DNA of 24,000 nucleotides, taken from assembly GCA_938010435.1 (NCBI GenBank), contig CALLUS010000004.1, forward strand, positions 75,230-99,229, in the 5' to 3' direction. Under the pieces are notes generated by a model that did no database searches, was not told the DNA's origin, and saw only the letters and a list, made by a program, of their open reading frames with translations. Positions 4,148 through 20,731 of the stretch are shown here, piece by piece. Within the stretch, counting starts at the first letter, position 1. Each line of letters begins with the position of its first letter. Both the position numbers and the translations under genes were made by a program. This stretch comes from an uncultured Rhizobiaceae group bacterium. GTDB lineage: Bacteria > Pseudomonadota > Alphaproteobacteria > Rhizobiales > Rhizobiaceae.

Positions 4148-6070
4148 TTAGGCAGATTTTTTCTCATCGTCGTCGTTGATTTCTTCGAAATCAGCGTCAA
4201 CAACATTTTCATCAGCGGCAGCATGCATTTCTGCGTCTGCTGCAGCAGCAGCCTCTTCTTCAGACTGTTGTGCTTCGTAGATCGCTTGACCCATTTTCAT
4301 GCTGGCTTCAGCAAGAGCTTGGGACTTCGCATTGATCTCTTCAGCATCTTCGCCTTCAAGAACAGTTTTCAAATCTGCCATCGCAGTTTCGATTGCTGTT
4401 TTGTCTTCATCGCTGACTTTATCTGCATGCTCAACCAAAGATTTCTCGGTTGAGTGAAGCAGCGTTTCGGCTTGGTTCTTGGCTTCAACTGCTTCGCGGC
4501 GCGCCTTATCGCCTTCAGCATTGGCTTCTGCGTCTTTGACCATTTGTTCGATATCAGCATCAGACAAGCCGCCAGATGCTTGAATGCGAATTTCATGAGA
4601 CTTGCCGGTGCCTTTGTCTTTGGCATTTACGTTCACAATGCCGTTGGCATCAATGTCGAAAGTCACTTCAACCTGTGGAACACCGCGCGGCGCCGGCGGA
4701 ATGCCAACCAGATCGAATTGACCCAAAGACTTGTTGTCCGCGGCCATTTCGCGTTCACCTTGTGACACACGAATGGTCACAGCATTTTGGTTGTCTTCAG
4801 CAGTGGAGAACGTTTGTGACTTTTTGGTCGGGATCGTTGTATTACGGTCGATCAAACGTGTGAACACGCCACCGAGTGTTTCAATACCGAGCGACAATGG
4901 TGTCACGTCGAGCAATAGAACGTCGGTTACGTCACCTTGGAGAACGCCAGCTTGAATAGCTGCACCCATGGCCACAACTTCATCAGGGTTCACACCTTTG
5001 TGCGGCTCCTTGCCGAAGAATTTCTGAACCGTTTCTTGAACCGCTGGCATACGGGTCATACCACCAACCAAAATAACTTCGTCGATTTCGCCCGTTGAAA
5101 GACCTGCATCTTTCAAAGCTTCTTGCATCGGCTTAACCGTACGCTTGACGAGATCAGCCACAAGGCTTTCGAATTTAGCCCGTGTCAGTTTCATAGTCAG
5201 GTGTTTTGGACCAGACGCGTCAGCCGTGATGAACGGCAGGTTGACTTCCGTTTGTGCAGATGAAGACAATTCGATTTTTGCTTTTTCAGCAGCTTCTTTC
5301 AAACGTTGCAAAGCAAGTTTGTCCGATTTCAAATCAACACCTTGATCTTTTTTGAATTCACTCGCCAGATATTCAACAAGCGTCATGTCGAAATCTTCAC
5401 CACCGAGGAATGTATCACCGTTGGTGGATTTCACTTCAAATACGCCATCGCCAATTTCAAGGATGGATACATCGAACGTACCGCCGCCAAGGTCATAAAC
5501 AGCAATTGTTTTGCCGTCATTTCTTTCCATACCGTAGGAAAGAGCCGCAGCGGTTGGCTCGTTGATGATGCGCAAAACTTCAAGACCTGCAATTTTACCG
5601 GCATCTTTGGTGGCCTGACGCTGGGCGTCGTTAAAGTAAGCAGGAACTGTAATAACAGCCTGTTCTACTTTTTCACCGAGATAAGCTTCTGCAGTTTCCT
5701 TCATTTTCTGAAGGATCATCGCTGAAATCTGTGATGGGGAATAGCTGTCGCCATTGGCCTCAACCCATGCATCGCCATTGTCGCCTTTGACAATATTGTA
5801 AGGGACCAATTTTTGATCTTTTTTCACTTCTGGCGCGTCAAAACGACGACCAATTAAGCGTTTTACCGCAAACAAAGTGTTTTCAGGGTTTGTCACAGCC
5901 TGACGTTTGGCAGGTTGCCCAACCAGACGTTCTTTTTCTTCTGTGAACGCAACCATTGAAGGTGTTGTACGCGCACCTTCCGCATTTTCGATCACTTTGG
6001 CATTTTTGCCATCCATCACCGCAACACATGAGTTGGTTGTACCCAAATCAATACCAATTACTTTAGCCAT
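4148..6070 (-). CDS. dnaK: molecular chaperone DnaK (Hsp70)
   Basis: The canonical N-terminus [18 protein letters not shown] begins at the ATG at 6068-6070, with an AAGGAGAG SD 7 nt upstream. The 23 extra residues of track ORF 4148..6139 are not Hsp70-like. The predicted protein is 640 aa. Confidence 0.97.
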
Positions 6071-10241: not shown

Positions 10242-11087
10242 CTAAGCTGCTGGCACTCGATGAGTATCATCTTTGACATTAGACTGCTCAATGGCGGATT
10301 TTGCCCAATTGAGTTTCTTATAATCAAATCCATGTTCAATGGTGGGTTTAATGGTGGCAAAATAAGGCGACAGATCAAAATCACGCGGTGCGAAAAGGGA
10401 ATGATGTCTGATATGCAAGATTTCTGATCTGGCATAGGTCTCACAATCATCACCAAGGCATTTGGGCAACTGTTTCACATCAGGCAAAATCGGATATTGA
10501 ACAGATTGGAACGCCTCTGCGATAAGGGTCGAACAAATCGCACGCGTTGGGTCACCAGAACCAAATGCGATCATTTTACGACGCCAGCGGGTTGGAACGG
10601 GAGGTGTTGGCAAAAGATAGCGCAACATATCAAGAATATTTCGCGTGTCGTAAGCCACGCCAATCTTACCGACCATGAATTGAACAATTTTCTGACGATC
10701 CTCGGAGCTCAAACCTACGGGCCTACAAATTCGCGTGTTATAGGTTTCATATCGGTTCAAGGGAACAGAAATGCAGCCCTCACCCAAATTCACTTCAATC
10801 AATCTGGGGCGGTTTTCGTCAAGACCGTCTTCAGACGCAGGCAATGCATCACCTACATATATTGCCGCATGGGACCATGTGGATTGAGTGAGATATTTGA
10901 TGGCTGCCGATACTTTTTGATTGCCTTCAACAAGCAACACATCACCCGGCTGGAGTGTTTCCCGAAGAATTTCCGGAGAGGAGGGCGTGTAGGGTTCATA
11001 ACCTGATGATTGCGCGGTGATTTTTCCGGCAACAAGCTCAGCAATCCAGTCCAACCATGTTCTTTTGATATTCAAAAGTAACTCCAA
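10242..11087 (-). CDS. YiiX-like permuted papain/NlpC-P60-fold hydrolase (putative)
   Basis: 281 aa. GDVLLVEG....AIKYLTQSTWSHAAIYVGD (His region) precedes AICSTLIAEAF (Cys region), the circularly permuted order of the YiiX family. The start is uncertain: TTG at 11087 or TTG at 11075. Confidence 0.5.
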   Translation of the reverse strand: MELLLNIKRTWLDWIAELVAGKITAQSSGYEPYTPSSPEILRETLQPGDVLLVEGNQKVSAAIKYLTQSTWSHAAIYVGDALPASEDGLDENRPRLIEVNLGEGCISVPLNRYETYNTRICRPVGLSSEDRQKIVQFMVGKIGVAYDTRNILDMLRYLLPTPPVPTRWRRKMIAFGSGDPTRAICSTLIAEAFQSVQYPILPDVKQLPKCLGDDCETYARSEILHIRHHSLFAPRDFDLSPYFATIKPTIEHGFDYKKLNWAKSAIEQSNVKDDTHRVPAA

Positions 11088-11115
11088 AACGTCACGTTCT
11101 GTTTTAATGTGACAT

Positions 11116-11139
11116 GATTTTTCAACGACGATTTTTCAA
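11116..11139. repeat. perfect tandem direct repeat GATTTTTCAA-CGAC-GATTTTTCAA
   Basis: Read directly. It lies 30-50 nt upstream of the YiiX-like start, within the likely promoter or operator region. Confidence 0.8.
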
Positions 11140-11340
11140 TAAATTTCACGTTGATGTCAGCAATGTCGTACGCAGCTGTTAGCGCAATAACACTGTTATG
11201 TCCTATTGAGAATATCGTTCTTTATGACAATTTGGATTTTTTGAAGGACTCTGTTGCGCTTGAAGCCCAAACAGAGAACGCTACATTGTCCCCATAATCT
11301 CGTTGCAGTGTCAATAGCCGACAAGCGGCTTTGTTGAAGT

Positions 11341-11400
11341 GGGCCCGCACACGAGTCATCATTTTCATGAGGGATGAGAAATAATGATTGGTGCGGACCC
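11341..11400. other. 60-nt imperfect hairpin (outer arms GGGCCCGCAC / GTGCGGACCC, 9/10 pairs, further internal pairing)
   Basis: Read directly. It lies in a 639-bp region with no convincing ORF. Confidence 0.7.
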
Positions 11401-11412
11401 GTCATGCATATA

Positions 11413-11428
11413 AAGTGGCCGGCCACTT
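11413..11428. repeat. perfect 16-bp palindrome AAGTGGCCGGCCACTT
   Basis: Read directly. There is no flanking T-tract on either strand. Confidence 0.85.
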
Positions 11429-11454
11429 GCAAACACGGCCCCAAACGCATGTGT

Positions 11455-11508
11455 CAGCCACAGATCCGTACCGAGGTAAACCACGGTTGCGCCCCGATCT
11501 GTTAGCTG
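11455..11508. other. 54-nt hairpin (CAGC+ACAGATC paired with GATCTGT+GCTG, 11 bp with an internal loop)
   Basis: Read directly. It is adjacent to the two structures above. Confidence 0.7.
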
Positions 11509-11726
11509 ACAACGGCTTATATGACTTTAGTTGCTCACTTTTGGCAGGTATATAACTGTTATATGGATGTAACACTGAATTTAATCATTTTAAATCATAT
11601 AGTTACATTATATCATATTTTGTGCTTCTTGAAGTGATCGACGCAAAGACAAGATATTTTCTCAAAAACTCCTGATAATTTTATGCAACATCTGAGCATG
11701 ACATGCTCAAAACACCAAAGAGTCGT

Positions 11727-12506
11727 CTAAGATATTGAAAATTGCAGAAGTGTCTTTTTCAAGAGTTCCAAGTCTTCATCTCGGGATAATCTATGATCAC
11801 CGTCTTTAACTAGTGTCACTTGTATATCATCATTTGCGAGAGTTTCCACAACTCGCAAAGCATGTTGCCAAGGAACATCAGGGTCTTGCATACCTTGCAA
11901 GATGCGAACTGGACCACCAACATTCAATTCTGTGTCGAGCACAAGGTTTTTACGTCCATCTTCGATCAACAATTTGGTGATAATTGTTGGTTCATCTGAA
12001 TATTCACTGGGCTCTTCTAAATAGCCTCTGATTTCAATTTCATTTTTTTGGTCATCCGAAAATTCAGGCTCCATCAGTTCCTTTGTGAAATCAGGAGCTG
12101 GCGCGATCAGTAACAAACCGCCAACGCGGCCGCTTTCACCGATCTTGTTCAGCTCTTGCACAACACGTAGCGCGATCCATGCACCCATTGATGACCCCAC
12201 AAGAATTTGCGGACTATCGGTCTTCTGACAAATAACCTGCACACTTTCTGACACCCAGCGTGAGATACAACCTTCTACAAACTCACCACCGGAGACCCCA
12301 TGGCCCGAATAATCAAACCGCATAGAGGCACAGCCTGCCGAACGCGCGCATTCAACCATGGTTTCAGCTTTGGTTCCCGCCATGTCTGAACGAAACCCGC
12401 CGAGCCACACGAATCCACGCGACTTGTTTGCAGCAGCCAATACCTTTACAGCCAGAGAAGTTGATTGCCCGTTCCACAGGTGATCAACAGTGGTATCAAC
12501 TTCCAA
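11727..12506 (-). CDS. alpha/beta-fold hydrolase
   Basis: 259 aa. It has the nucleophile elbow GSSMG, with later D (MQDPDV) and H (DGDHRL) completing a Ser-Asp-His order. The start is TTG. Confidence 0.75.
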   Translation of the reverse strand: MEVDTTVDHLWNGQSTSLAVKVLAAANKSRGFVWLGGFRSDMAGTKAETMVECARSAGCASMRFDYSGHGVSGGEFVEGCISRWVSESVQVICQKTDSPQILVGSSMGAWIALRVVQELNKIGESGRVGGLLLIAPAPDFTKELMEPEFSDDQKNEIEIRGYLEEPSEYSDEPTIITKLLIEDGRKNLVLDTELNVGGPVRILQGMQDPDVPWQHALRVVETLANDDIQVTLVKDGDHRLSRDEDLELLKKTLLQFSIS

Positions 12507-12575
12507 ATCAAAGTCTCCTAAATTGAGCTTGGAACCCTTTCAATTATTGAAGCGCGGAACGTCTGAAATATCAAC

Positions 12576-13754
12576 ATGAGTGATGAACCAACCACAAAAC
12601 ATGTTCTTCAAGTCATCCCCGATATGGGAACTGGTGGCGCAGAAAAAACAACCCTTGATATTGCCAATGAATTGGTTCGATTGGGGTGGAATTCAACAGT
12701 CACGAGCAATGGGGGGCGCTTGGTTTCAGCGTTGGAGGCTGGCGGCAGCACCCATTTGAAAATGTCTATGCACTCAAAAAACCCAATTACAATCATCACC
12801 AACGGGTTCAGATTAGCGCGTATCATCAAAGCTGAAAATATCAGTATTATCCATGCTCGGTCTCGAGCGCCTGCCTGGTCTGCCTTGATTGCAGCACGTC
12901 TCACGGACATTCCATTTGTCACAACTTATCACGGCGCTTACAGCCAGTCCGGGCGACTTAAAGCTCTCTACAATTCCATCATGGCGCGCGCGGACGCCGT
13001 TATCGCCAATTCCCATTGGACTGCTGATCTGATCCGAAAACGTCATCCATGGTCCCATGACAAAATTAGCGTGATTCATCGTGGAACAGATTTTGATGAA
13101 TTCGCCCCAAAGGCGATTTCTGATGAACGCCTAAAAAACATAAAGAGCACTTGGAACATCAAAAATGACGACTTCGTTGTTCTAAAACTTGCACGATTGA
13201 CCGATTGGAAAGGTCAAAAATATCTCATCGAAGCGGTCGCTCTGATTATCGAAGAGTTCCCTCATGTAAAACTCGTTTTGGCAGGTGATGCTCAAGGACG
13301 TGACACTTATAGAAACCAGTTGATGGATTTGATCAAAAAATACGATCTCCAAAAGAAGGTCATATTGCCCGGTCATTGTGATGACCCAGCAGCTGCCATG
13401 GCGACTTCACATGCAGTGGTTGTCGCCTCAACAGATGCGGAAGCATTTGGCCGCGCAGCTGTTGAAGCCAGCGCCTTTGAAAAACCTTTGATTGTGACAC
13501 GTATTGGCGCGGTGGTTGAAACAGTTTTGGCTGAACCTGAAGTCACAAAAGCGAAGGCCACCGGCTGGAAAGTACCTCCGGCAAACGCCGCTGAAATGGC
13601 ACGTGCTTTGAAAGAATTGCTTCTCTCCTCAAAGGATGAACAAAACGCCATTGGAAAACGAGCGCGTGCTTATGTAACAGCCAGTTTTTCGCTTCAGAAC
13701 ATGTGCTCGAAAACCATATCCGTTTATAATGCATTGCTGAGCAAACAGCGTTAA
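12576..13754 (+). CDS. glycosyltransferase family 4 (GT-B, group 1)
   Basis: 392 aa. The N-terminal GGAE motif (MGTGGAEKTT) and the C-terminal E(x7)E-type region (EAFGRAAVEA) are typical of GT4 retaining transferases. Confidence 0.75.
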   Translation: MSDEPTTKHVLQVIPDMGTGGAEKTTLDIANELVRLGWNSTVTSNGGRLVSALEAGGSTHLKMSMHSKNPITIITNGFRLARIIKAENISIIHARSRAPAWSALIAARLTDIPFVTTYHGAYSQSGRLKALYNSIMARADAVIANSHWTADLIRKRHPWSHDKISVIHRGTDFDEFAPKAISDERLKNIKSTWNIKNDDFVVLKLARLTDWKGQKYLIEAVALIIEEFPHVKLVLAGDAQGRDTYRNQLMDLIKKYDLQKKVILPGHCDDPAAAMATSHAVVVASTDAEAFGRAAVEASAFEKPLIVTRIGAVVETVLAEPEVTKAKATGWKVPPANAAEMARALKELLLSSKDEQNAIGKRARAYVTASFSLQNMCSKTISVYNALLSKQR

Positions 13755-13903
13755 TGTGTATTCATCATAGGGCGTTTCTCTTCATCAGGTTTCACGCAGA
13801 GTCCCTGTTTTTCTTATGAAACCATGCTATAGGGAAACTGCATTTGGTGATTTGACCATCAAATGGTTCGATTTTTTACGTCAACAACCAGGAGTTAACA
13901 GCC

Positions 13904-14440
13904 ATTCGCCGTCCACATAGAGCCGCAGCACCGCAAAAAAACGGTCCACGCGCAAACCAAGATATTTCCGCCACAGAAGTTCAATTAATTGACGCTGAAG
14001 GCACAAACCACGGAACCGTGGCAACAAGTCAAGCATTAGAAATGGCGTTGGAAGCCGGATTGGATCTCGTTGAGATTTCACCAACTAACCGCCCGCCCAT
14101 TTGTAAAATTCTAGATTTTGGTAAATATAAATATGCTGCCCAGAAAAAGGCTGCTGAAGCACGCAAGCGCCAAAAAACCATTGAAGTCAAAGAGATCAAA
14201 ATGCGTCCCAATATTGATACGCATGATTATGACGTGAAAATGCGTTCTGTTCGCAGATTTTTTGAAGACGGCGATAAGGTCAAAGTCACTCTTCGTTTCC
14301 GCGGGCGCGAAATGGCGCACATGAATCTCGGCATGGACCTTCTGAAGAAGGTCAAAGAAGACACAGAAGAAATTGCCAAAGTTGAAGCCGAGCCGAAACT
14401 GGAAGGCCGTCAGATGATGATGGTTCTGGCTCCCAAATAA
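13904..14440 (+). CDS. infC: translation initiation factor IF-3, initiating at a non-canonical ATT codon
   Basis: Track ORF 14018..14440 starts at an internal GTG. The frame is open back to 13856 and encodes (I)[32 protein letters not shown], which aligns with the conserved IF-3 N-domain start (MRRPF...GPR.N..I...V.LID..G). The ATT at 13904 lies 9 nt after AGGAG (13890-13894). The predicted protein is 178 aa. Confidence 0.85.
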
Positions 14441-14504
14441 CCGGCTTTCTTTAGACTTTTCACGACACCGTTAGAGATACGGGCATTTAATCGTGTTTCA
14501 GGCA

Positions 14505-14547
14505 TTTACCCTTGGGAAAGAGTTGTTAAACTGTTTCTTAGGGTAAA
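14505..14547 (+). other. extended hairpin (TTTACCCT / AGGGTAAA plus GGGAAA/UUUCUU with G-U pairs) between infC and luxR
   Basis: Read directly. The stem has 8 perfect bp plus 6 more, with a 1-nt bulge and a 14-nt loop. There is no T-tract after it. Confidence 0.6.
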
Positions 14548-14681
14548 GTCGTTGGAAGCGTTCCTAATTGGAACATTTGTGTCGGCGTGGGCGTGAAATT
14601 GATGATGTATCGGATCTAATTTGATATGTTTGTTGAATTGCTTTCCCACTTACCCCTAATGTGAAATTGAGGGCGCATGGG

Positions 14682-15422
14682 ATGGGGACTCCCGAATTAA
14701 CAGACGAGTATGATCGTTTTTTCGATGAATTGAGCAGATTGCCAGATATTAATCTGTGCATTGAAAAGATTTGTTCCGAATTTAAAATTCAATTTGTCAC
14801 GTACCATTTGGCTTTCCACGAAGGGAAAGCCATAGATTCACCCTATGTTAGAACCAATTACCCTGCTGACTGGGTAAGTCAGTATTTGACAAATGATTAT
14901 GTTGAAATTGATCCAGTCGCACAAAGCGGCTTTAAACGGGCTCTGCCTTGCCTTTGGTCGGACCTAGATTGGTCATCTGATAAGTCGGTAGATTTTAAAA
15001 ATGATGCTCAAAAGCATGGTATTGGCACTTCTGGATATCTTGTACCAATAACCGATCGCCGGCGCCGTAGAGCAATTGTCAATTTTGCCAGTTCTGCAAA
15101 AGAATCAATTTGGTCACATAAGATCAATGATATAAGTCTTTTGCTGCAAGAGTGTGCTGAGATTTTACATCGAAAAGCGATTGTAGATCTTTACGGTACA
15201 GACGATGAAAAGCCCGCACTGTCTCCTCGCGAAATTCAATGTTTGACTTGGGTTGCACAAGGCAAAGACGCGAGTTCAATTGGTCTTATTCTAGGTATTT
15301 CCGAACACACAGTGCGTGATTATTGCAAAAGTGCAAAACACAAACTCGGCTGCTCAACCATGTATCAGGCAATCCATAAAGCCACGATGCTGCGATTGAT
15401 TGATCCTGACTCACTGAACTAG
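14682..15422 (+). CDS. luxR: LuxR-family AHL-responsive transcriptional regulator
   Basis: The autoinducer-binding domain shows the conserved W/Y/D-P/W/G pattern (YPADWVSQYL..YVEIDPV, LPCLWSD, GIGTSGY). The C-terminal GerE-type HTH reads LSPREIQCLTWVAQGKDASSIGLILGISEHTVRDY. I prefer the ATG at 14682 (GAGGG 8 nt upstream); the track start is the GTG at 14661. Confidence 0.9.
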   Translation: MGTPELTDEYDRFFDELSRLPDINLCIEKICSEFKIQFVTYHLAFHEGKAIDSPYVRTNYPADWVSQYLTNDYVEIDPVAQSGFKRALPCLWSDLDWSSDKSVDFKNDAQKHGIGTSGYLVPITDRRRRRAIVNFASSAKESIWSHKINDISLLLQECAEILHRKAIVDLYGTDDEKPALSPREIQCLTWVAQGKDASSIGLILGISEHTVRDYCKSAKHKLGCSTMYQAIHKATMLRLIDPDSLN

Positions 15423-15461
15423 ATAACACAAACTCCATTCATAGTTTTTGAACTTCACCAA

Positions 15462-15479
15462 CCCCCTAAATTTGGGGGG
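15462..15479. promoter_or_regulatory. candidate lux-box-type operator CCCCCTAAATTTGGGGGG upstream of luxI
   Basis: This 18-bp dyad has 8 of 9 symmetric pairs. Its centre is about 80 nt upstream of the luxI ATG and about 32-37 nt upstream of a -10-like CATATT (15503-15508), consistent with a box centred near -42. An extra TTTGGGG half-site lies at 15485-15491. Confidence 0.45.
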
Positions 15480-15550
15480 GTGAGTTTGGGGAATTGTTGA
15501 TTCATATTGAAATCTGCTGCGATGCATCATCACAATTGAGGAGGTGATGT

Positions 15551-16213
15551 ATGTTTTTTGTCTTGGAGGACCACAACAGAAACGAATATCCAACGCTCTA
15601 TCAGCGCATGTTTCAACTTCGCAAAGAAGTTTTCGCGGAACAATTGGAGTGGGATGTCAAACTGTCTAATCTTGGAGAGATTGATGCCTATGACGACTGC
15701 AACCCAGCTTATTTGATATGGACCAACGCTGACAAAACAATATTATACGGCTGCCTGCGACTTTTACCCACGACCGGACCGACCCTTCTATACGATGTGT
15801 TTCGTGACACATTTCCCAACAATGTATCATTAACTGCCCCTGGAATTTGGGAGGGTACACGCCTTTGTATCGATGAAAAGGCTTTGGCCAAAGACCATCC
15901 TGCAATGAACCCAAGGCGTGCGTTTTGTCTTATGTTGCTTGGGCTATGTGAAGTGGCCCTGCAATTCAAAATCCACACATTGATCTCAAATTATGAACCT
16001 GCGACCAAACGGTTGTATAATATGTCTGGTGCTGTGCTCACCGAGCTGGGACGGGCAAATAGTTACGGCAAACGCCCTGTATGTGCCGGGAGTTTTGAAG
16101 TTTCCCAAAAAGTTCTTAAGAACATGAGGATCAGATTGGGGGTAAACCATGCATTGCTAAATAATGACTTTCCTGATGATGAGAAAAAAGCAACCCAATC
16201 TCAGGCAGCCTAG
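15551..16213 (+). CDS. luxI: LuxI-family acyl-homoserine-lactone synthase
   Basis: 220 aa with a strong SD (GAGGAGGTGA) 4 nt upstream. Conserved LuxI residues are visible: FQLRKEVF..L.W, EIDAYDD, RLLPTTGPTLL and IWEGTRLC. Confidence 0.92.
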   Translation: MFFVLEDHNRNEYPTLYQRMFQLRKEVFAEQLEWDVKLSNLGEIDAYDDCNPAYLIWTNADKTILYGCLRLLPTTGPTLLYDVFRDTFPNNVSLTAPGIWEGTRLCIDEKALAKDHPAMNPRRAFCLMLLGLCEVALQFKIHTLISNYEPATKRLYNMSGAVLTELGRANSYGKRPVCAGSFEVSQKVLKNMRIRLGVNHALLNNDFPDDEKKATQSQAA

Positions 16214-16236
16214 CCGCAGATTTGCAAAATATCGTC

Positions 16237-18219
16237 ATGATGAACCACGATACTTCGCACGGAACAAATAAAGGACGATCCGAGCTTTCCCCAACTCAAC
16301 ATTTCTCGACACAAGGCAAAATTGAGGTCACCGATGACGCAATCGCAACCGAAATTGCATTTCTCCTGAAATACGGATTAGGACGTCCAACTTTAGAAAC
16401 AGCAACACGCCGCGCAGCTTATTTCAATATCTCGGCAGCTGAATCTTTAATGGCTTATGGTGCTATCAGTGAAAGCGACTATGCCAGATGTTGCGCTTGG
16501 GAACTTAACATCGAGTTCACAGATTTCACATCAGAGATGGTGGAGCCGATAACACAAGTGCCCAACCCAGACACACTTTTGCGAATGGCAGCAATGGTTC
16601 AAACGCAAGAGCGACGAGATTTGGATGTCATCGCACAGCAGTTTGATGGCAGGCTGGTGAATTTAGCGCCTGATATGCGCAAACTATCTCAGTTTGTTCC
16701 CTTTTTTTCCAAACATCCAAATGTGAAGAATAGGATCCGCATTACTACGGTGCGCGCAAATCGCGAGAGCATCATTCGGCGGTGTAAGGGCAGTCTTCTG
16801 TTCAATGCCGTTCACGGATTACGGGAAAAACTTCCACAATTCAGCGCGCGGCGGGTCATCACTGTTGCACAAGCAATCGTACTTTTTGTACTTTTTCAAA
16901 CAGTTGCAATTATCGCATTCATCTCTTCGAACGCTATTTTATTTACAGCTCATCTACTTGCATCCACGTTCTATCTGGGGTGTGTGGGGTTACGTGCTTA
17001 TTCAGCACTGCAACAAGGTGTTGTGCAAAAACATGCCGAGTTTAAAAAGAAACAAACCCGGAAGTTGAACGACAGTGAACTGCCATTCTATTCAATCGTT
17101 GTCGCGCTCTATCAAGAACAATCTCAAATTGCCGACCTCATCTCATCATTGCTGAAACTCGATTGGCCTTATGAAAAACAAGAGATCTTATTGGTTTGTG
17201 AAGAAGACGACACCGCTACAATAAATGCCATTGAAGCCTGCATCACAAATTTACGACGACCTCATATTTCTCTAATCATTGTGCCGTTTGCTGAACCGCG
17301 CACAAAACCAAAAGCATTGAACTATGCTTTGCAGCTTTGCCGCGGAGATTACGTTGTTGTTTATGATGCAGAGGACCGGCCTGCAACAAATCAACTGCGT
17401 CAAGCGTCGGATGAATTTATGATGGAGAGTGCTGACCTGGTTTGTTTGCAAGCACCATTATCCATTCATAATCATCACGAAAGCTGGCTCTCCAAAATGT
17501 TCGCAATTGAATACAGCGCTCTCTTTGATGGGCTGTTGCCAACTCTTGCGCACAATAAGCTGCCCCTGCCGTTGGGTGGAACTTCAAATCACTTCAAAAA
17601 AGATATCTTAATCGAAATAGGTGGTTGGGACCCTTATAATGTGACCGAAGACGCTGATCTGGGTATGCGTATGTCCAGAGCCGGATATTCCATCGGCACA
17701 TTGACAGCCCCTACAATGGAAGAAGCACCAATTGCTTTCAATATCTGGTTAAAACAACGAACACGTTGGTTTAAAGGGTGGTTTCAAACTTGGCTGGTAC
17801 ACATGCGTCACCCGATTTTTTTGGTACAAGACCTCGGGTTTAGGGGCGCTCTTATTTTTCATCTCATGATCACAGGGATGATTGTATCATCACTGGTCCA
17901 CCCACTTCTATTATATTTCATTGCATCATGGATTTGGTTCAACTGGGCTTATGGGTTTGCAGCAACTTTTTCCAATCCTCTTTTCTTGTTCGATCTTGTA
18001 ACGATTCTTGGTGGCTATTTATCGTTTTCGGCATTGGCATTGCGGACGATGCCGAAGCGAAACTTACAACATTTGTCTATTTGGTTGCTTACCCTGCCAA
18101 TATATTGGTTGTTGTTGTCGATTGCAGCATGGCGCGCCGTTTGGCACCTGATTAGACGTCCCCACGAATGGGAAAAGACGCCACACAGGTTACAACGTGC
18201 AAATTCTGCGACAGATTAG
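16237..18219 (+). CDS. processive family-2 glycosyltransferase (membrane-embedded polysaccharide synthase) with an extra N-terminal cytoplasmic domain
   Basis: GT2 motifs appear in order: YSIVVALYQE, YDAEDR (DxD), VTEDADLG (TED) and KQRTRWFKGW (QxxRW). Two hydrophobic helices precede the catalytic domain and at least four follow it. The ~200-aa N-terminus looks T2SSE_N-like. The start is ATG 16237 or 16240, or the track's TTG 16222, 8-23 nt after the luxI stop. Confidence 0.85.
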   Translation: MMNHDTSHGTNKGRSELSPTQHFSTQGKIEVTDDAIATEIAFLLKYGLGRPTLETATRRAAYFNISAAESLMAYGAISESDYARCCAWELNIEFTDFTSEMVEPITQVPNPDTLLRMAAMVQTQERRDLDVIAQQFDGRLVNLAPDMRKLSQFVPFFSKHPNVKNRIRITTVRANRESIIRRCKGSLLFNAVHGLREKLPQFSARRVITVAQAIVLFVLFQTVAIIAFISSNAILFTAHLLASTFYLGCVGLRAYSALQQGVVQKHAEFKKKQTRKLNDSELPFYSIVVALYQEQSQIADLISSLLKLDWPYEKQEILLVCEEDDTATINAIEACITNLRRPHISLIIVPFAEPRTKPKALNYALQLCRGDYVVVYDAEDRPATNQLRQASDEFMMESADLVCLQAPLSIHNHHESWLSKMFAIEYSALFDGLLPTLAHNKLPLPLGGTSNHFKKDILIEIGGWDPYNVTEDADLGMRMSRAGYSIGTLTAPTMEEAPIAFNIWLKQRTRWFKGWFQTWLVHMRHPIFLVQDLGFRGALIFHLMITGMIVSSLVHPLLLYFIASWIWFNWAYGFAATFSNPLFLFDLVTILGGYLSFSALALRTMPKRNLQHLSIWLLTLPIYWLLLSIAAWRAVWHLIRRPHEWEKTPHRLQRANSATD

Positions 18220-19307
18220 GAAGCGAAGTGCTTTGAAAGTTTTAAGCCTTGAGCCTGATAGTTGGATTTTAAATCAGCGCCGTATAAAGCTTTTGGGCGT
18301 TCCATCATGTGTTCATAGACCAACCGGCCGACGATCTGTCCGTGTTCCAAAATAAATGGTACTTCATGGCTGCGCACTTCAAGGACAGCACGAGCGCCTG
18401 TTCCTCCCGCCGCAGCATGACCAAAACCAGGGTCAAAAAATCCAGCATAATGCACGCGGAATTCACCTACTAACGGATCGAATGGCACCATTTCTGCCGC
18501 ATAATTTGGCGGTACATGAACAGCTTCACGCGACACCAGAATGTAAAATTCGTCAGGATCGAGAACAATGTCCTGCGACCCGCGATTGTAAATCGGTTCC
18601 CAATAATCGAGCACGCTACATGCAGCTTTTTTATCCACATCCACAACGCCTGTGTGACGCTTACCCCGATAACCCACCAGACCATCTTTGTCGCCCGTGA
18701 GATCAATCGACATGGCGATGCCTCGATGATCAATATTTGGTTGTTCAGCAGCTACAAGCGTTTCAGCGTCATGCAAAGCCAACAGTGTATCTCGATCGAG
18801 AACAGCTTCGCCCGTGCGAAACCTGATTTGAGAAAGTCTTGAACCCGTGCGCGCGACAATCGGGAAGGTACGTGGGCTCACTTCGATATAGAGTGGTCCT
18901 TCGTAGCCCGTTGGCACCATATCAAATTGCTGGGCATTATCCGCAATAACGCGGGTAAAAATATCAAGACGGCCCGTAGAGCTTTTTGGATTGGCCGACG
19001 CGGAAATATTTTCTGGTAACTTGAAACCTTCCAATACGGGAACGATGTAAACGCAACCTGTTTCCAAAACGGCTCCCTCGCTAAGATCGATTTTATGGAG
19101 CAGGAAGCGTTCCATTTTATCAATCACGGTGGAGTCTTTTCCAGGCAAAAATGATGCTCTCACACGCCAGGCATATTTGCCCAAACGCAGGTCCAAGCTC
19201 GCTGGCTGAATCTGATCTTCATCCAGCCGGCGCTCACACGAAATACCACCTTGCGCGAATAGCGCGGCAATTTGGGCGTCGTTTAAAATTCCATACTCTT
19301 TGCTCAT
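18216..19307 (-). CDS. dcd: 2'-deoxycytidine 5'-triphosphate deaminase (long ~360-aa form)
   Basis: 363 aa. The length and overall pattern match the long DCD family common in alphaproteobacteria (two dUTPase-like halves). It has an ATG start. Confidence 0.8.
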   Translation of the reverse strand: MSKEYGILNDAQIAALFAQGGISCERRLDEDQIQPASLDLRLGKYAWRVRASFLPGKDSTVIDKMERFLLHKIDLSEGAVLETGCVYIVPVLEGFKLPENISASANPKSSTGRLDIFTRVIADNAQQFDMVPTGYEGPLYIEVSPRTFPIVARTGSRLSQIRFRTGEAVLDRDTLLALHDAETLVAAEQPNIDHRGIAMSIDLTGDKDGLVGYRGKRHTGVVDVDKKAACSVLDYWEPIYNRGSQDIVLDPDEFYILVSREAVHVPPNYAAEMVPFDPLVGEFRVHYAGFFDPGFGHAAAGGTGARAVLEVRSHEVPFILEHGQIVGRLVYEHMMERPKALYGADLKSNYQAQGLKLSKHFAS

Positions 19308-19376
19308 AACAATCTCTTTATCGCGACAAGGAATTGACGCAAAGTGGTCCTTGCTTTAACCCACACCTCAATTGTG

Positions 19377-19428
19377 GTGATTTGGCCGGTCGGCTTGCAG
19401 CCACATTAAACAAGTCGCTAAAGGACCG
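19377..19428 (+). promoter_or_regulatory. SAM-II (alphaproteobacterial metA/metZ-type) riboswitch aptamer, candidate
   Basis: GUGAUUUGGCCGGUCGGCUUGCAGCCACAUUAAACAAGUCGCUAAAGGACCG matches my memory of the SAM-II consensus (GAUUUGG...GGCUUGCAGCC...UUAAACAAGUCGCUAAAG). P1 is 19377-19384 with 19411-19418 (8 bp). A pseudoknot is possible between CGGUC (19387-19391) and GACCG (19424-19428). It lies in the 5' leader of metZ. Confidence 0.6.
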
Positions 19429-19466
19429 AAACTGAAACAGGGCTTTCGCCGTGTCTTCAATTTGGG

Positions 19467-19503
19467 AAACCGATTTCGCGGCCGTCGTGAAGTCGGTTTT
19501 TTT
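19467..19503 (+). terminator. intrinsic terminator/attenuator in the metZ leader
   Basis: AAACCGAUUUC / GAAGUCGGUUU forms an 11-bp stem (one G-U pair) with an 11-nt loop, running into a 7-T tract. It ends 40 nt before the metZ ATG and is the likely expression platform of the riboswitch. Confidence 0.75.
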
Positions 19504-19543
19504 ATATCCGATTTTCTGATGACCAATTTGGAGTGAAAAGAAT

Positions 19544-20731
19544 ATGTCTAAGAATTGGAAGCCAGCAACACAACTCGTGCACGCCGGCACACAACGTTCG
19601 CAGTTTGGGGAAACATCAGAAGCTCTCTATCTCACACAGGGCTTTGTATATGAGTCTGCAGAAGCTGCAGAAGCACGCTTCAACGGCGAAGAAGAGGGCT
19701 ATGTGTATTCACGCTATGCCAACCCAACAGTATCTATGTTTGAAGAACGTATGTGCGCCTTGGAAGGTGCTGAGGCTGCCCTTGGCACGGCGAGTGGCAT
19801 GGGGGCAATCAGTGCCGCGCTTATGTGTCAGGTGAAAGCGGGAGATCATGTGGTTTCTGCCCGTGCACTGTTTGGATCATGCCGCTGGGTCGTTGAAAAA
19901 CTTATGCCGCAATATGGGGTTGAATCGACCTTGGTGGATGGAACAGATCTAGAAGCTTGGAAAGCGGCTATCCGTCCGAACACAAAAATTCTGTTTTTAG
20001 AATCACCCACGAACCCGACACTTGAATTGGTGGATGTTGCTGCAGTTGCTCAGCTGGCCAAAGAAATCGACGCCAAGCTCGTCGTTGACAACGTATTTGC
20101 TACACCACTTTATCAAAAACCTTTGGAACTTGGTGCCGATATCGTGGTCTATTCAGCAACCAAACATATTGATGGCCAAGGTCGTTGTTTGGGTGGCGTT
20201 GTGCTCTCCAGCGAAGAGTGGATTAAAGAAAGTCTGTTTGACTATTTTCGCCATACCGGACCGAGCCTCTCACCCTTCAATGCATGGGTGTTGCTAAAGG
20301 GATTGGAAACCCTGCCTCTTCGGGTGGCACAGCAAACTGCTAATGCCACACGCCTTGCTGACCAATTGGCAGATGCTTCCCATGTGAAACGTATCATTTA
20401 TCCCGGTCGAGACGACCATCCACAAGCTGATATTGCCAAAAAGCAAATGAGTGCCGGATCAACGCTGGTTGCTTTTGAATTGGAAGGCGGGAAACCTGCC
20501 GCTTTCGCATTTGAAAATGCACTGGAAATAGTTAAAGTTTCCAACAACCTTGGTGATGCTAAAAGCCTTATCACTCACCCAGCCACCACCACACACAAAA
20601 ACTTGTCTGACGAAGATCGCGCTGAACTGGGCATTTCCGATGGTATGATGCGTCTATCTTGTGGTTTGGAAGACACGGACGACTTGATGGGTGACATTGC
20701 AAAAGCGCTGGAGTTATCGAGCAAGGTGTAA
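19544..20731 (+). CDS. metZ: O-succinylhomoserine sulfhydrylase (Cys/Met-metabolism PLP enzyme)
   Basis: 395 aa. The PLP-lysine context is YSATKHIDGQGR, with the N-terminal TQLVHAG...E...LYLTQGF. The overall pattern fits MetZ-type enzymes. Confidence 0.85.
   Translation: MSKNWKPATQLVHAGTQRSQFGETSEALYLTQGFVYESAEAAEARFNGEEEGYVYSRYANPTVSMFEERMCALEGAEAALGTASGMGAISAALMCQVKAGDHVVSARALFGSCRWVVEKLMPQYGVESTLVDGTDLEAWKAAIRPNTKILFLESPTNPTLELVDVAAVAQLAKEIDAKLVVDNVFATPLYQKPLELGADIVVYSATKHIDGQGRCLGGVVLSSEEWIKESLFDYFRHTGPSLSPFNAWVLLKGLETLPLRVAQQTANATRLADQLADASHVKRIIYPGRDDHPQADIAKKQMSAGSTLVAFELEGGKPAAFAFENALEIVKVSNNLGDAKSLITHPATTTHKNLSDEDRAELGISDGMMRLSCGLEDTDDLMGDIAKALELSSKV

Follow-up and report, generated by a model that had tools for sequence, protein, structure and literature searches.

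That quorum sensing controls exopolysaccharides is well established; the control usually acts in trans on large gene clusters, as does the ExpR/Sin regulation of Sinorhizobium meliloti, whose targets are distant clusters. In the cinR-cinI-cinS locus of Rhizobium leguminosarum/etli, a luxR gene, a luxI gene and a small open reading frame (ORF) follow one another. In S. meliloti, ExpR/Sin controls EPS II, succinoglycan and a mixed-linkage glucan (BgsA) (PMC5567048). Among polysaccharide synthases, Escherichia coli NfrB is a glycosyltransferase of family 2 (GT2) activated by cyclic di-GMP (c-di-GMP), which is bound by its MshEN domain (PMC8669469); the c-di-GMP motif of MshEN domains comprises 24 residues, RLGxx(L/V/I)(L/V/I)xxG...Q (PMC5013675). 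Here we analyse a 24,000-nucleotide stretch of contig CALLUS010000004.1 from an uncultured Rhizobiaceae group bacterium (the window), in which luxR and luxI, coding for a receptor and a synthase of N-acyl-homoserine lactones (AHLs), are directly followed by the gene of a membrane-integrated GT2 of the processive type (hereafter GT2). As in S. meliloti, long-chain-AHL quorum sensing of a Rhizobium relative would govern an exopolysaccharide, but regulation there is in trans whereas the synthase gene of the window stands directly behind luxI. From the sequence evidence presented below, quorum sensing rather probably drives the expression of GT2 in this genome. The literature searched, with incomplete coverage, contained no prior report of a luxI followed by a glycosyltransferase gene or of AHL systems in Ahrensia.

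A complete cin-type luxR-luxI pair

The two regulatory genes form a complete, canonical LuxR/LuxI pair. Pfam searches found Autoind_bind (E 1e-26) and GerE (E 7.5e-13) in LuxR (ORF 14661/14682-15422), whose most likely start, the ATG at 14682, gives the same length as in its relatives (246 aa). Direct reading showed that the residues conserved in TraR (W57, Y61, D70, P71, W85, E178, L182 and G188) are present with the same spacing, and the nearest solved structures are those of QscR, TraR and RhlR. LuxI matches Autoind_synth (PF00765; E 2.4e-29, 102.7 bits, with the gathering cut-off at 24) as well as the structures of LasI, BjaI and TofI, and carries the motifs RLLPTTGPTLLYDVF (aa 70) and ISNYEP (aa 145).

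Among named proteins, LuxI is closest to synthases of 221 aa from Rhizobium, Mesorhizobium and Agrobacterium (55-58% identity; identities of LuxR, LuxI and GT2 relatives are given throughout against the window proteins, and L-numbers denote fetched loci). One of them, P0170, is 56% identical and is encoded on a 4.48-Mb Rhizobium chromosome in the order luxR-luxI-63-aa ORF, the last overlapping luxI; this order is the one known for cinR-cinI-cinS, and by its position the ORF would correspond to the small regulator CinS. The window pair is predicted to be a chromosomal cinR/cinI-type pair, a type whose synthases make 3-OH-C14:1-HSL or another AHL with a long chain. It shares with the Rhizobium cin locus the placement of luxR before luxI on one strand of the chromosome and a next gene that begins 0-23 nt after luxI. 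The two loci differ in the identity of this next gene, a 63-aa ORF in Rhizobium and a 660-aa synthase in the window. No cinS-like small ORF was found after the window luxI, and since GT2 starts 8-23 nt past the luxI stop there is no room for one; GT2 stands in the slot held by the cinS-like ORF in the Rhizobium locus.

A conserved box and a candidate promoter upstream of luxI

The spacer between luxR and luxI contains a conserved box made of the palindrome CCCCCTAAATTTGGGGG (15462-15478) and a repeated right half-site, GAGTTTGGGGAATTG. The box is located 40 nt past the luxR stop and 73-89 nt before the luxI ATG, and its core is a CCCCC-N6-GGGGG inverted repeat (I1). The pattern CCCCYAAATTTRGGGG has a single match in the 24-kb window, where 0.26 would be expected by chance. 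All luxR-bearing relatives (L082, L086, L089, L085 and L084) keep the box while the remainder of the spacer has diverged. The luxR-luxI spacer of Rhizobium has the same two-part architecture, CCCCCCATCTGAGGGGG and then CCCATCTGAGGGAATTT; in both loci a C5-N6-G5 core precedes a repeated half-site that ends in GGGAATT, and this shared design supports descent of the two promoters from a common ancestor. We compared the box with the Rhizobium locus, as no usable consensus of an ExpR/CinR box was found in the literature searched. Operators of the lux-box type are established upstream of the targets of LuxR-family regulators, and the box is likely a binding site of LuxR.

Downstream of the palindrome, a -10-like hexamer, CATATT, lies 6 nt after the non-palindromic element GGGAATTG, and the placement of CATAAT/CATATT after this element is common to the window, L082 and L086. 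A promoter scanner reported TTGAAA-18-CACAAT at 15507-15536, a weak consensus match only. We infer that 15503-15536 is a candidate luxI promoter region.

The form of the box varies among loci. In the window, L082, L086 and L089 the right half-site is doubled by an insertion of 13-14 nt, as it also is in the Rhizobium cin locus, and the palindrome is single in L084 and L085.

The luxI-GT2 junction and its conservation

GT2 follows luxI after 8 nt if it starts at TTG, or after 23 nt if it starts at ATG. From 15491 to the GT2 stop (18219) the + strand has no predicted terminator-like site, and the RNA of the junction folds no better than shuffled sequences (z +0.43). The spacer measures 3-27 nt throughout the sub-lineage of the window. 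An inverted repeat across the GT2 start codon (16223-16259) was considered as a regulatory hairpin and rejected, its fold being similar to that of shuffles and the repeat not being conserved in L082 and L083.

The closest genomes, reached by exact-protein look-up, revealed the order infC-luxR-luxI-GT2 in four metagenomic relatives for which this stretch was sampled in full; their GT2 identities are 73% (L082), 53% (L085), 50% (L086) and 45% (L089). The gene dcd follows GT2 in the first three, and the contig of L089 ends before dcd. In L083 (GT2 69% identical) the contig begins at luxI and continues with GT2 and dcd. Across these loci LuxR is 59-79% and LuxI 65-78% identical. Two further cases of luxI followed by GT2 are suggested by LuxI and GT2 matches on equal-sized contigs of 4974 and 4575 bp. 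Adjacency of luxRI and GT2 conserved across such deep divergence argues for functional coupling. In L084, luxR, the box and GT2 are kept and luxI is reduced to a short remnant. Within this marine clade the pair probably has an old origin and probably was lost several times.

An identical 17-mer, TTGCGGCTGCCTGCGAA, was observed upstream of GT2 in L084 (5905-5921) and L086 (5940-5956), two loci whose GT2s are about 50% identical to that of the window. It lies within the weak luxI remnant of L084, in the region encoding ...YGCLRL..., and downstream of an intact luxI in L086, which hints that it either stems from a second luxI that has decayed or belongs to a conserved regulatory element.

GT2 resembles membrane-integrated processive synthases

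GT2 matches the Pfam families Glyco_tranf_2_3, Glyco_trans_2_3 and Glycos_transf_2 (ORF 16222/16237-18219). Its motifs YDAEDR (aa 376), GGTSNHF (aa 447), TED (aa 470) and QRTRW (aa 507) are invariant columns in 22 homologues, and hydropathy places hydrophobic segments around aa 206-255 and 536-635, enclosing the catalytic domain. An AlphaFold2 (AF2) model built with the 22 homologues (pLDDT 87.5, pTM 0.86) consists of a disordered N-terminus, a soluble domain (aa 33-200), two transmembrane (TM) helices, a GT-A domain and a C-terminal helical bundle. The best Foldseek matches of this model are BcsA, hyaluronan synthases and chitin synthases (E 5e-14 to 1e-8), and the sequence profile of the family also reaches BcsA (E 2e-12). 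As modelled, GT2 has the build of a membrane-integrated processive synthase-translocase, and is similar to BcsA, class I hyaluronan synthase, chitin synthase and PgaC in its catalytic motifs, flanking TM helices and predicted fold.

The best NCBIfam matches of GT2 are far below threshold, with 75 against 422 bits for PgaC/IcaA (TIGR03937) and 53 against 699 bits for CelA (TIGR03030), and the source annotations of the family are no more specific than 'glycosyltransferase'. We rejected GT2 as a BcsA cellulose synthase on the CelA score, on the lack of any Pfam match to PilZ in GT2 and on the absence of BcsB from the window. It was equally rejected as a PgaC/IcaA synthase of poly-N-acetylglucosamine, given the TIGR03937 score and the absence of pgaABD neighbours. 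GT2 differs from BcsA and PgaC by having no PilZ domain and no BcsB, PgaD or PgaA/B partner in the window. No exporter was found among the Pfam matches of the window ORFs from 10242 to 20731 or in the neighbour lists of the relatives' loci.

The soluble domain of GT2 is predicted to have a GSPII/MshEN fold. The GT2 family profile weakly matches the GSPII domain of Thermus PilF (E 0.0015). When the domain was modelled separately (pLDDT 82.9), its 19 top Foldseek matches were all GSPII/MshEN domains (PilF GSPII-A/B, MshE-N, XpsE-N and PilB-N), a uniform list with modest E values (2e-3 to 0.3) and target-normalised TM scores of 0.43-0.61. At E values up to 10, Pfam found nothing, PF05157 included, in the first 233 aa or in the last 139 aa of GT2 when these were searched on their own. 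A single-sequence search with the domain among 1.84 billion representatives gave 24 proteins of at most 669 aa, each matched near its own N-terminus and several already among the GT2-family matches. No secretion ATPase was among the 24, and the link to GSPII/MshEN domains is for this reason structural only. Even in relaxed form, the c-di-GMP motif was found in none of 120 GT2 family members, while the NfrB control has two copies. The domain has lost the motif or never had it.

NfrB is the closest described analogue of GT2. Both are inner-membrane GT2 proteins with DxD/TED/QxxRW motifs fused to a cytoplasmic GSPII/MshEN-fold domain, and only their GT domains align (24% identity, hhalign probability 97%). 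The MshEN domain of NfrB is C-terminal, recognised by Pfam (52.9 bits) and carries the c-di-GMP motif, whereas that of GT2 is N-terminal, unseen by Pfam and without the motif, and the NfrA and YbcH partners are missing.

The first-pass annotation, made from the sequence alone, had described a complete LuxR and a complete LuxI resembling the CinI type with no cinS-like small ORF behind them, followed at 8-23 nt on the same strand, with no hairpin or T-tract between, by a GT2 bearing the processive motifs and TM helices on both sides of its catalytic domain. It placed the three genes between infC and dcd and saw no PilZ, BcsB or exporter partner in the window. The domain searches, the identity to P0170 together with the common promoter box, the junction analysis, the BcsA/hyaluronan synthase-like predicted fold and the recovery of IF3 and a two-domain dCTP deaminase in the flanks agree with this description. 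Its further proposal, that AHL signalling controls the GT2 transcript and that this one protein makes and exports a beta-linked homopolymer, describes a putative function of the locus. It had overlooked the conserved box before luxI and the N-terminal GSPII/MshEN-fold domain of about 170 aa.

An old GT2-dcd synteny and a variable luxRI pair

A wider view was obtained from 80 distant Hyphomicrobiales loci, the matches listed in a scan of genome contigs, each from a different species and with GT2 relatives of 34-47% identity. A LuxI within 8 kb of GT2 was found in none of the 80. Eighteen of them have dcd within 8 kb of GT2, and in about eight of these 18 dcd is directly downstream, usually with metZ next. 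The same GT2-dcd-metZ order without luxRI was found in Ahrensia (L087). In L090 (GT2 49% identical), a backbone like that of the window, coding for an alpha/beta hydrolase, a GT4, infC, GT2, dcd and metZ, has nothing between infC and GT2; L091 likewise has GT2 and no luxRI. In Hyphomicrobiales the synteny of GT2, dcd and metZ is old, and GT2 has long resided beside dcd, its ancestral neighbour.

The commonest upstream neighbour of GT2 in the distant loci is a divergent gene for a periplasmic SBP_bac_3 protein, about 1 kb away (47 of 73 among those listed), often together with a class I lysyl-tRNA synthetase gene and an S24 (LexA-like) gene. It was rejected as a partner of GT2, since neither the window nor the loci of the near clade have it.

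The first-pass annotation had proposed that luxR, luxI and GT2 were acquired horizontally as one three-gene island between infC and dcd, pointing to a lower GC content. The dip is real and small (0.42-0.46 against 0.47-0.51, across 14000-18000), and together with a low GC content at third codon positions (GC3) of luxR (0.356) it speaks for an island. For luxI and GT2, the dip arises at codon positions 1 and 2: their GC3 values (0.462 and 0.428) lie within the 0.415-0.515 of the other 18 window genes, GC3 is low only in luxR, and the codon-usage divergence of all three genes is within the range of the other window genes. At the borders, the ORF and Pfam listing showed neither mobility genes nor a tRNA nor direct repeats. 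Common acquisition of the three genes is very improbable and is contradicted by the synteny. GT2-dcd-metZ exists without luxRI, the site is empty in L090, and luxI and GT2 are unremarkable in GC3 and codon usage, so that it is the two-gene luxRI pair between infC and GT2 that varies, not a three-gene island.

Layout of the locus and neighbouring genes

The three genes stand head to tail on the + strand, with infC on the left and dcd on the right (Table 1). The start of infC is probably an ATT preceded by AGGAG at 9 nt, an in-frame upstream extension preferred to the GTG at 14018 of the mechanical ORF list, which truncates the N-terminal domain of IF3. On the other side, dcd is convergent with GT2 and overlaps it by 4 nt at the GT2 stop.

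Table 1. Features of the luxR-luxI-GT2 locus (positions in the window)
Feature	Position	Strand	Description or evidence
infC (IF3)	13904..14440	+	left flank; Pfam IF3_N/IF3_C, TIGR00168
luxR	14682..15422	+	AHL-receptor transcription factor, 246 aa; alternative GTG start 14661
Conserved box	15459..15496	.	candidate LuxR (cin-type) binding site, predicted
Candidate luxI promoter region	15503..15536	+	weak consensus match
luxI	15551..16213	+	AHL synthase, 220 aa, CinI-like
luxI-GT2 junction	16214..16236	+	23 nt
GT2	16237..18219	+	membrane-integrated processive-type glycosyltransferase, 660 aa; alternative TTG start 16222
N-terminal cytoplasmic GSPII/MshEN-fold domain of GT2 (aa 33-200)	16333..16836	+	profile and fold search
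Two TM helices before catalytic domain (aa 206-255)	16852..17001	+	hydropathy; AF2 helices 210-229, 231-273
GT-A catalytic domain of GT2	17083..17802	+	Pfam GT2 models, motifs
C-terminal TM bundle of GT2 (aa 526-640)	17812..18156	+	AF2 model, hydropathy
dcd (two-domain dCTP deaminase)	18216..19307	-	right flank; NF005734, E 3e-187

Several further observations concern the surroundings. The genes rpmI and rplT do not follow infC in the window. A SAM-II riboswitch (SAM_alpha, RF00521; 72 bits) is located at 19364-19441 on the + strand, between dcd and metZ (19544-20731) and upstream of the latter. A block coding for a C92 amidase, an alpha/beta hydrolase and a GT4 (10242-13754) accompanies GT2 in L084-L086 and L089-L091; the association holds even in L091, which has the block in inverted orientation and no infC at the locus. 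A functional link between GT4 and GT2 is possible in this clade.

Discussion

Starting from what the analysis shows, namely which genes are present, how GT2 is predicted to fold, the synteny, the conserved box and the missing terminator, we infer binding of LuxR to the box, co-transcription, a polymer and its export as follows. LuxR with a long-chain AHL would bind the CCCCC-N6-GGGGG box and activate luxI in a positive autoinduction, and transcription would pass from luxI into GT2 across the short, terminator-free junction of this lineage, possibly with coupled translation. The level of the synthase would thereby rise with cell density. GT2 would polymerise a nucleotide sugar at its DxD/TED/QRTRW site and thread the polymer through its own TM bundle across the inner membrane, and the N-terminal GSPII/MshEN-fold domain may be a regulatory or partner-binding module that adds a layer of control.

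Several observations weigh against this sequence of events. GT2 occurs without luxRI in most genomes, where it must have its own promoter because luxRI is absent there. In L086 and L089 the spacer between luxI and GT2 reaches about 140 nt and contains strong stem-loops directly after luxI, at 5861-5901 (-29 kcal/mol, z -3.0) and 5873-5918 (-38 kcal/mol, z -2.9) respectively; they are GC-rich, lack a T-tract and have no counterpart in the window, and because of them and of the long spacers the operon coupling may not be general. No clear Shine-Dalgarno sequence was found before the GT2 start codon of the window, and no outer-membrane exporter or substrate-supplying gene lies nearby. The neighbour-joining tree of GT2 homologues is star-like and unresolved, with luxRI-bearing and luxRI-less genomes interspersed, so that gains and losses of luxRI are not countable. 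Finally, the terminator scanner also lists the box (15464-15491) as a terminator-like site for luxR. The occurrence of GT2 without luxRI in all 80 distant loci listed and in L087, L090 and L091, together with the hairpins and long spacers of L086 and L089, would suit a locus of uncoupled neighbours, in which luxRI landed or was retained at a permissive infC-GT2 intergenic site and GT2 is transcribed independently of AHL from its own promoter within the 3' part of luxI. Sigma-70-like matches inside luxI do exist, but they are weak, and promoter-like matches show no excess over shuffled sequences (12 found against 10.8 expected). Moreover, order and orientation persist in relatives with a GT2 identity as low as 45%, the spacer has shrunk to 3-27 nt without a terminator in the sub-lineage of the window, and L084 lost luxI yet kept luxR, the box and GT2. 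We regard this explanation as rather unlikely.

The same scanner result bears on the box itself, whose palindrome (15462-15478) could be mainly a luxR terminator or an RNA-stability hairpin and not a LuxR operator. Its distance from the luxR stop, its arms of G and C runs and a centre that differs between clades (AAATTT or ATCTGA) are compatible with such a structure. On the other hand, its tail is not T-rich, the non-palindromic element and the repeated right half-site are conserved in sequence although a hairpin needs neither, and its size, symmetry and location before luxI fit operators of the lux-box type. A role mainly in RNA structure is improbable, and the roles of terminator and operator are compatible, not exclusive.

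Returning to quorum-sensing-driven expression of GT2, we tentatively propose a broader picture, in which a cin-type circuit of a marine Rhizobiaceae-like clade has a single-protein exopolysaccharide synthase-translocase wired into its autoinduction operon at the cinS-like slot, and in which the MshEN-fold domain no longer binds c-di-GMP and may respond to another ligand or dock a partner protein. If true, the locus would be a minimal three-gene unit of signal, receptor and matrix. A synthase within a cin-type autoinduction operon would provide a compact and testable model of density-dependent matrix production in marine relatives of Rhizobium, as well as a handle on an orphan GT2 family conserved across Hyphomicrobiales. 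GT2 would also represent, after NfrB, a second architecture that fuses a processive GT2 to a GSPII/MshEN-fold module, here without the c-di-GMP motif. Moreover, genomes carrying both regulatory genes, luxR only or neither at one backbone site would constitute a ready-made comparison set for this family.

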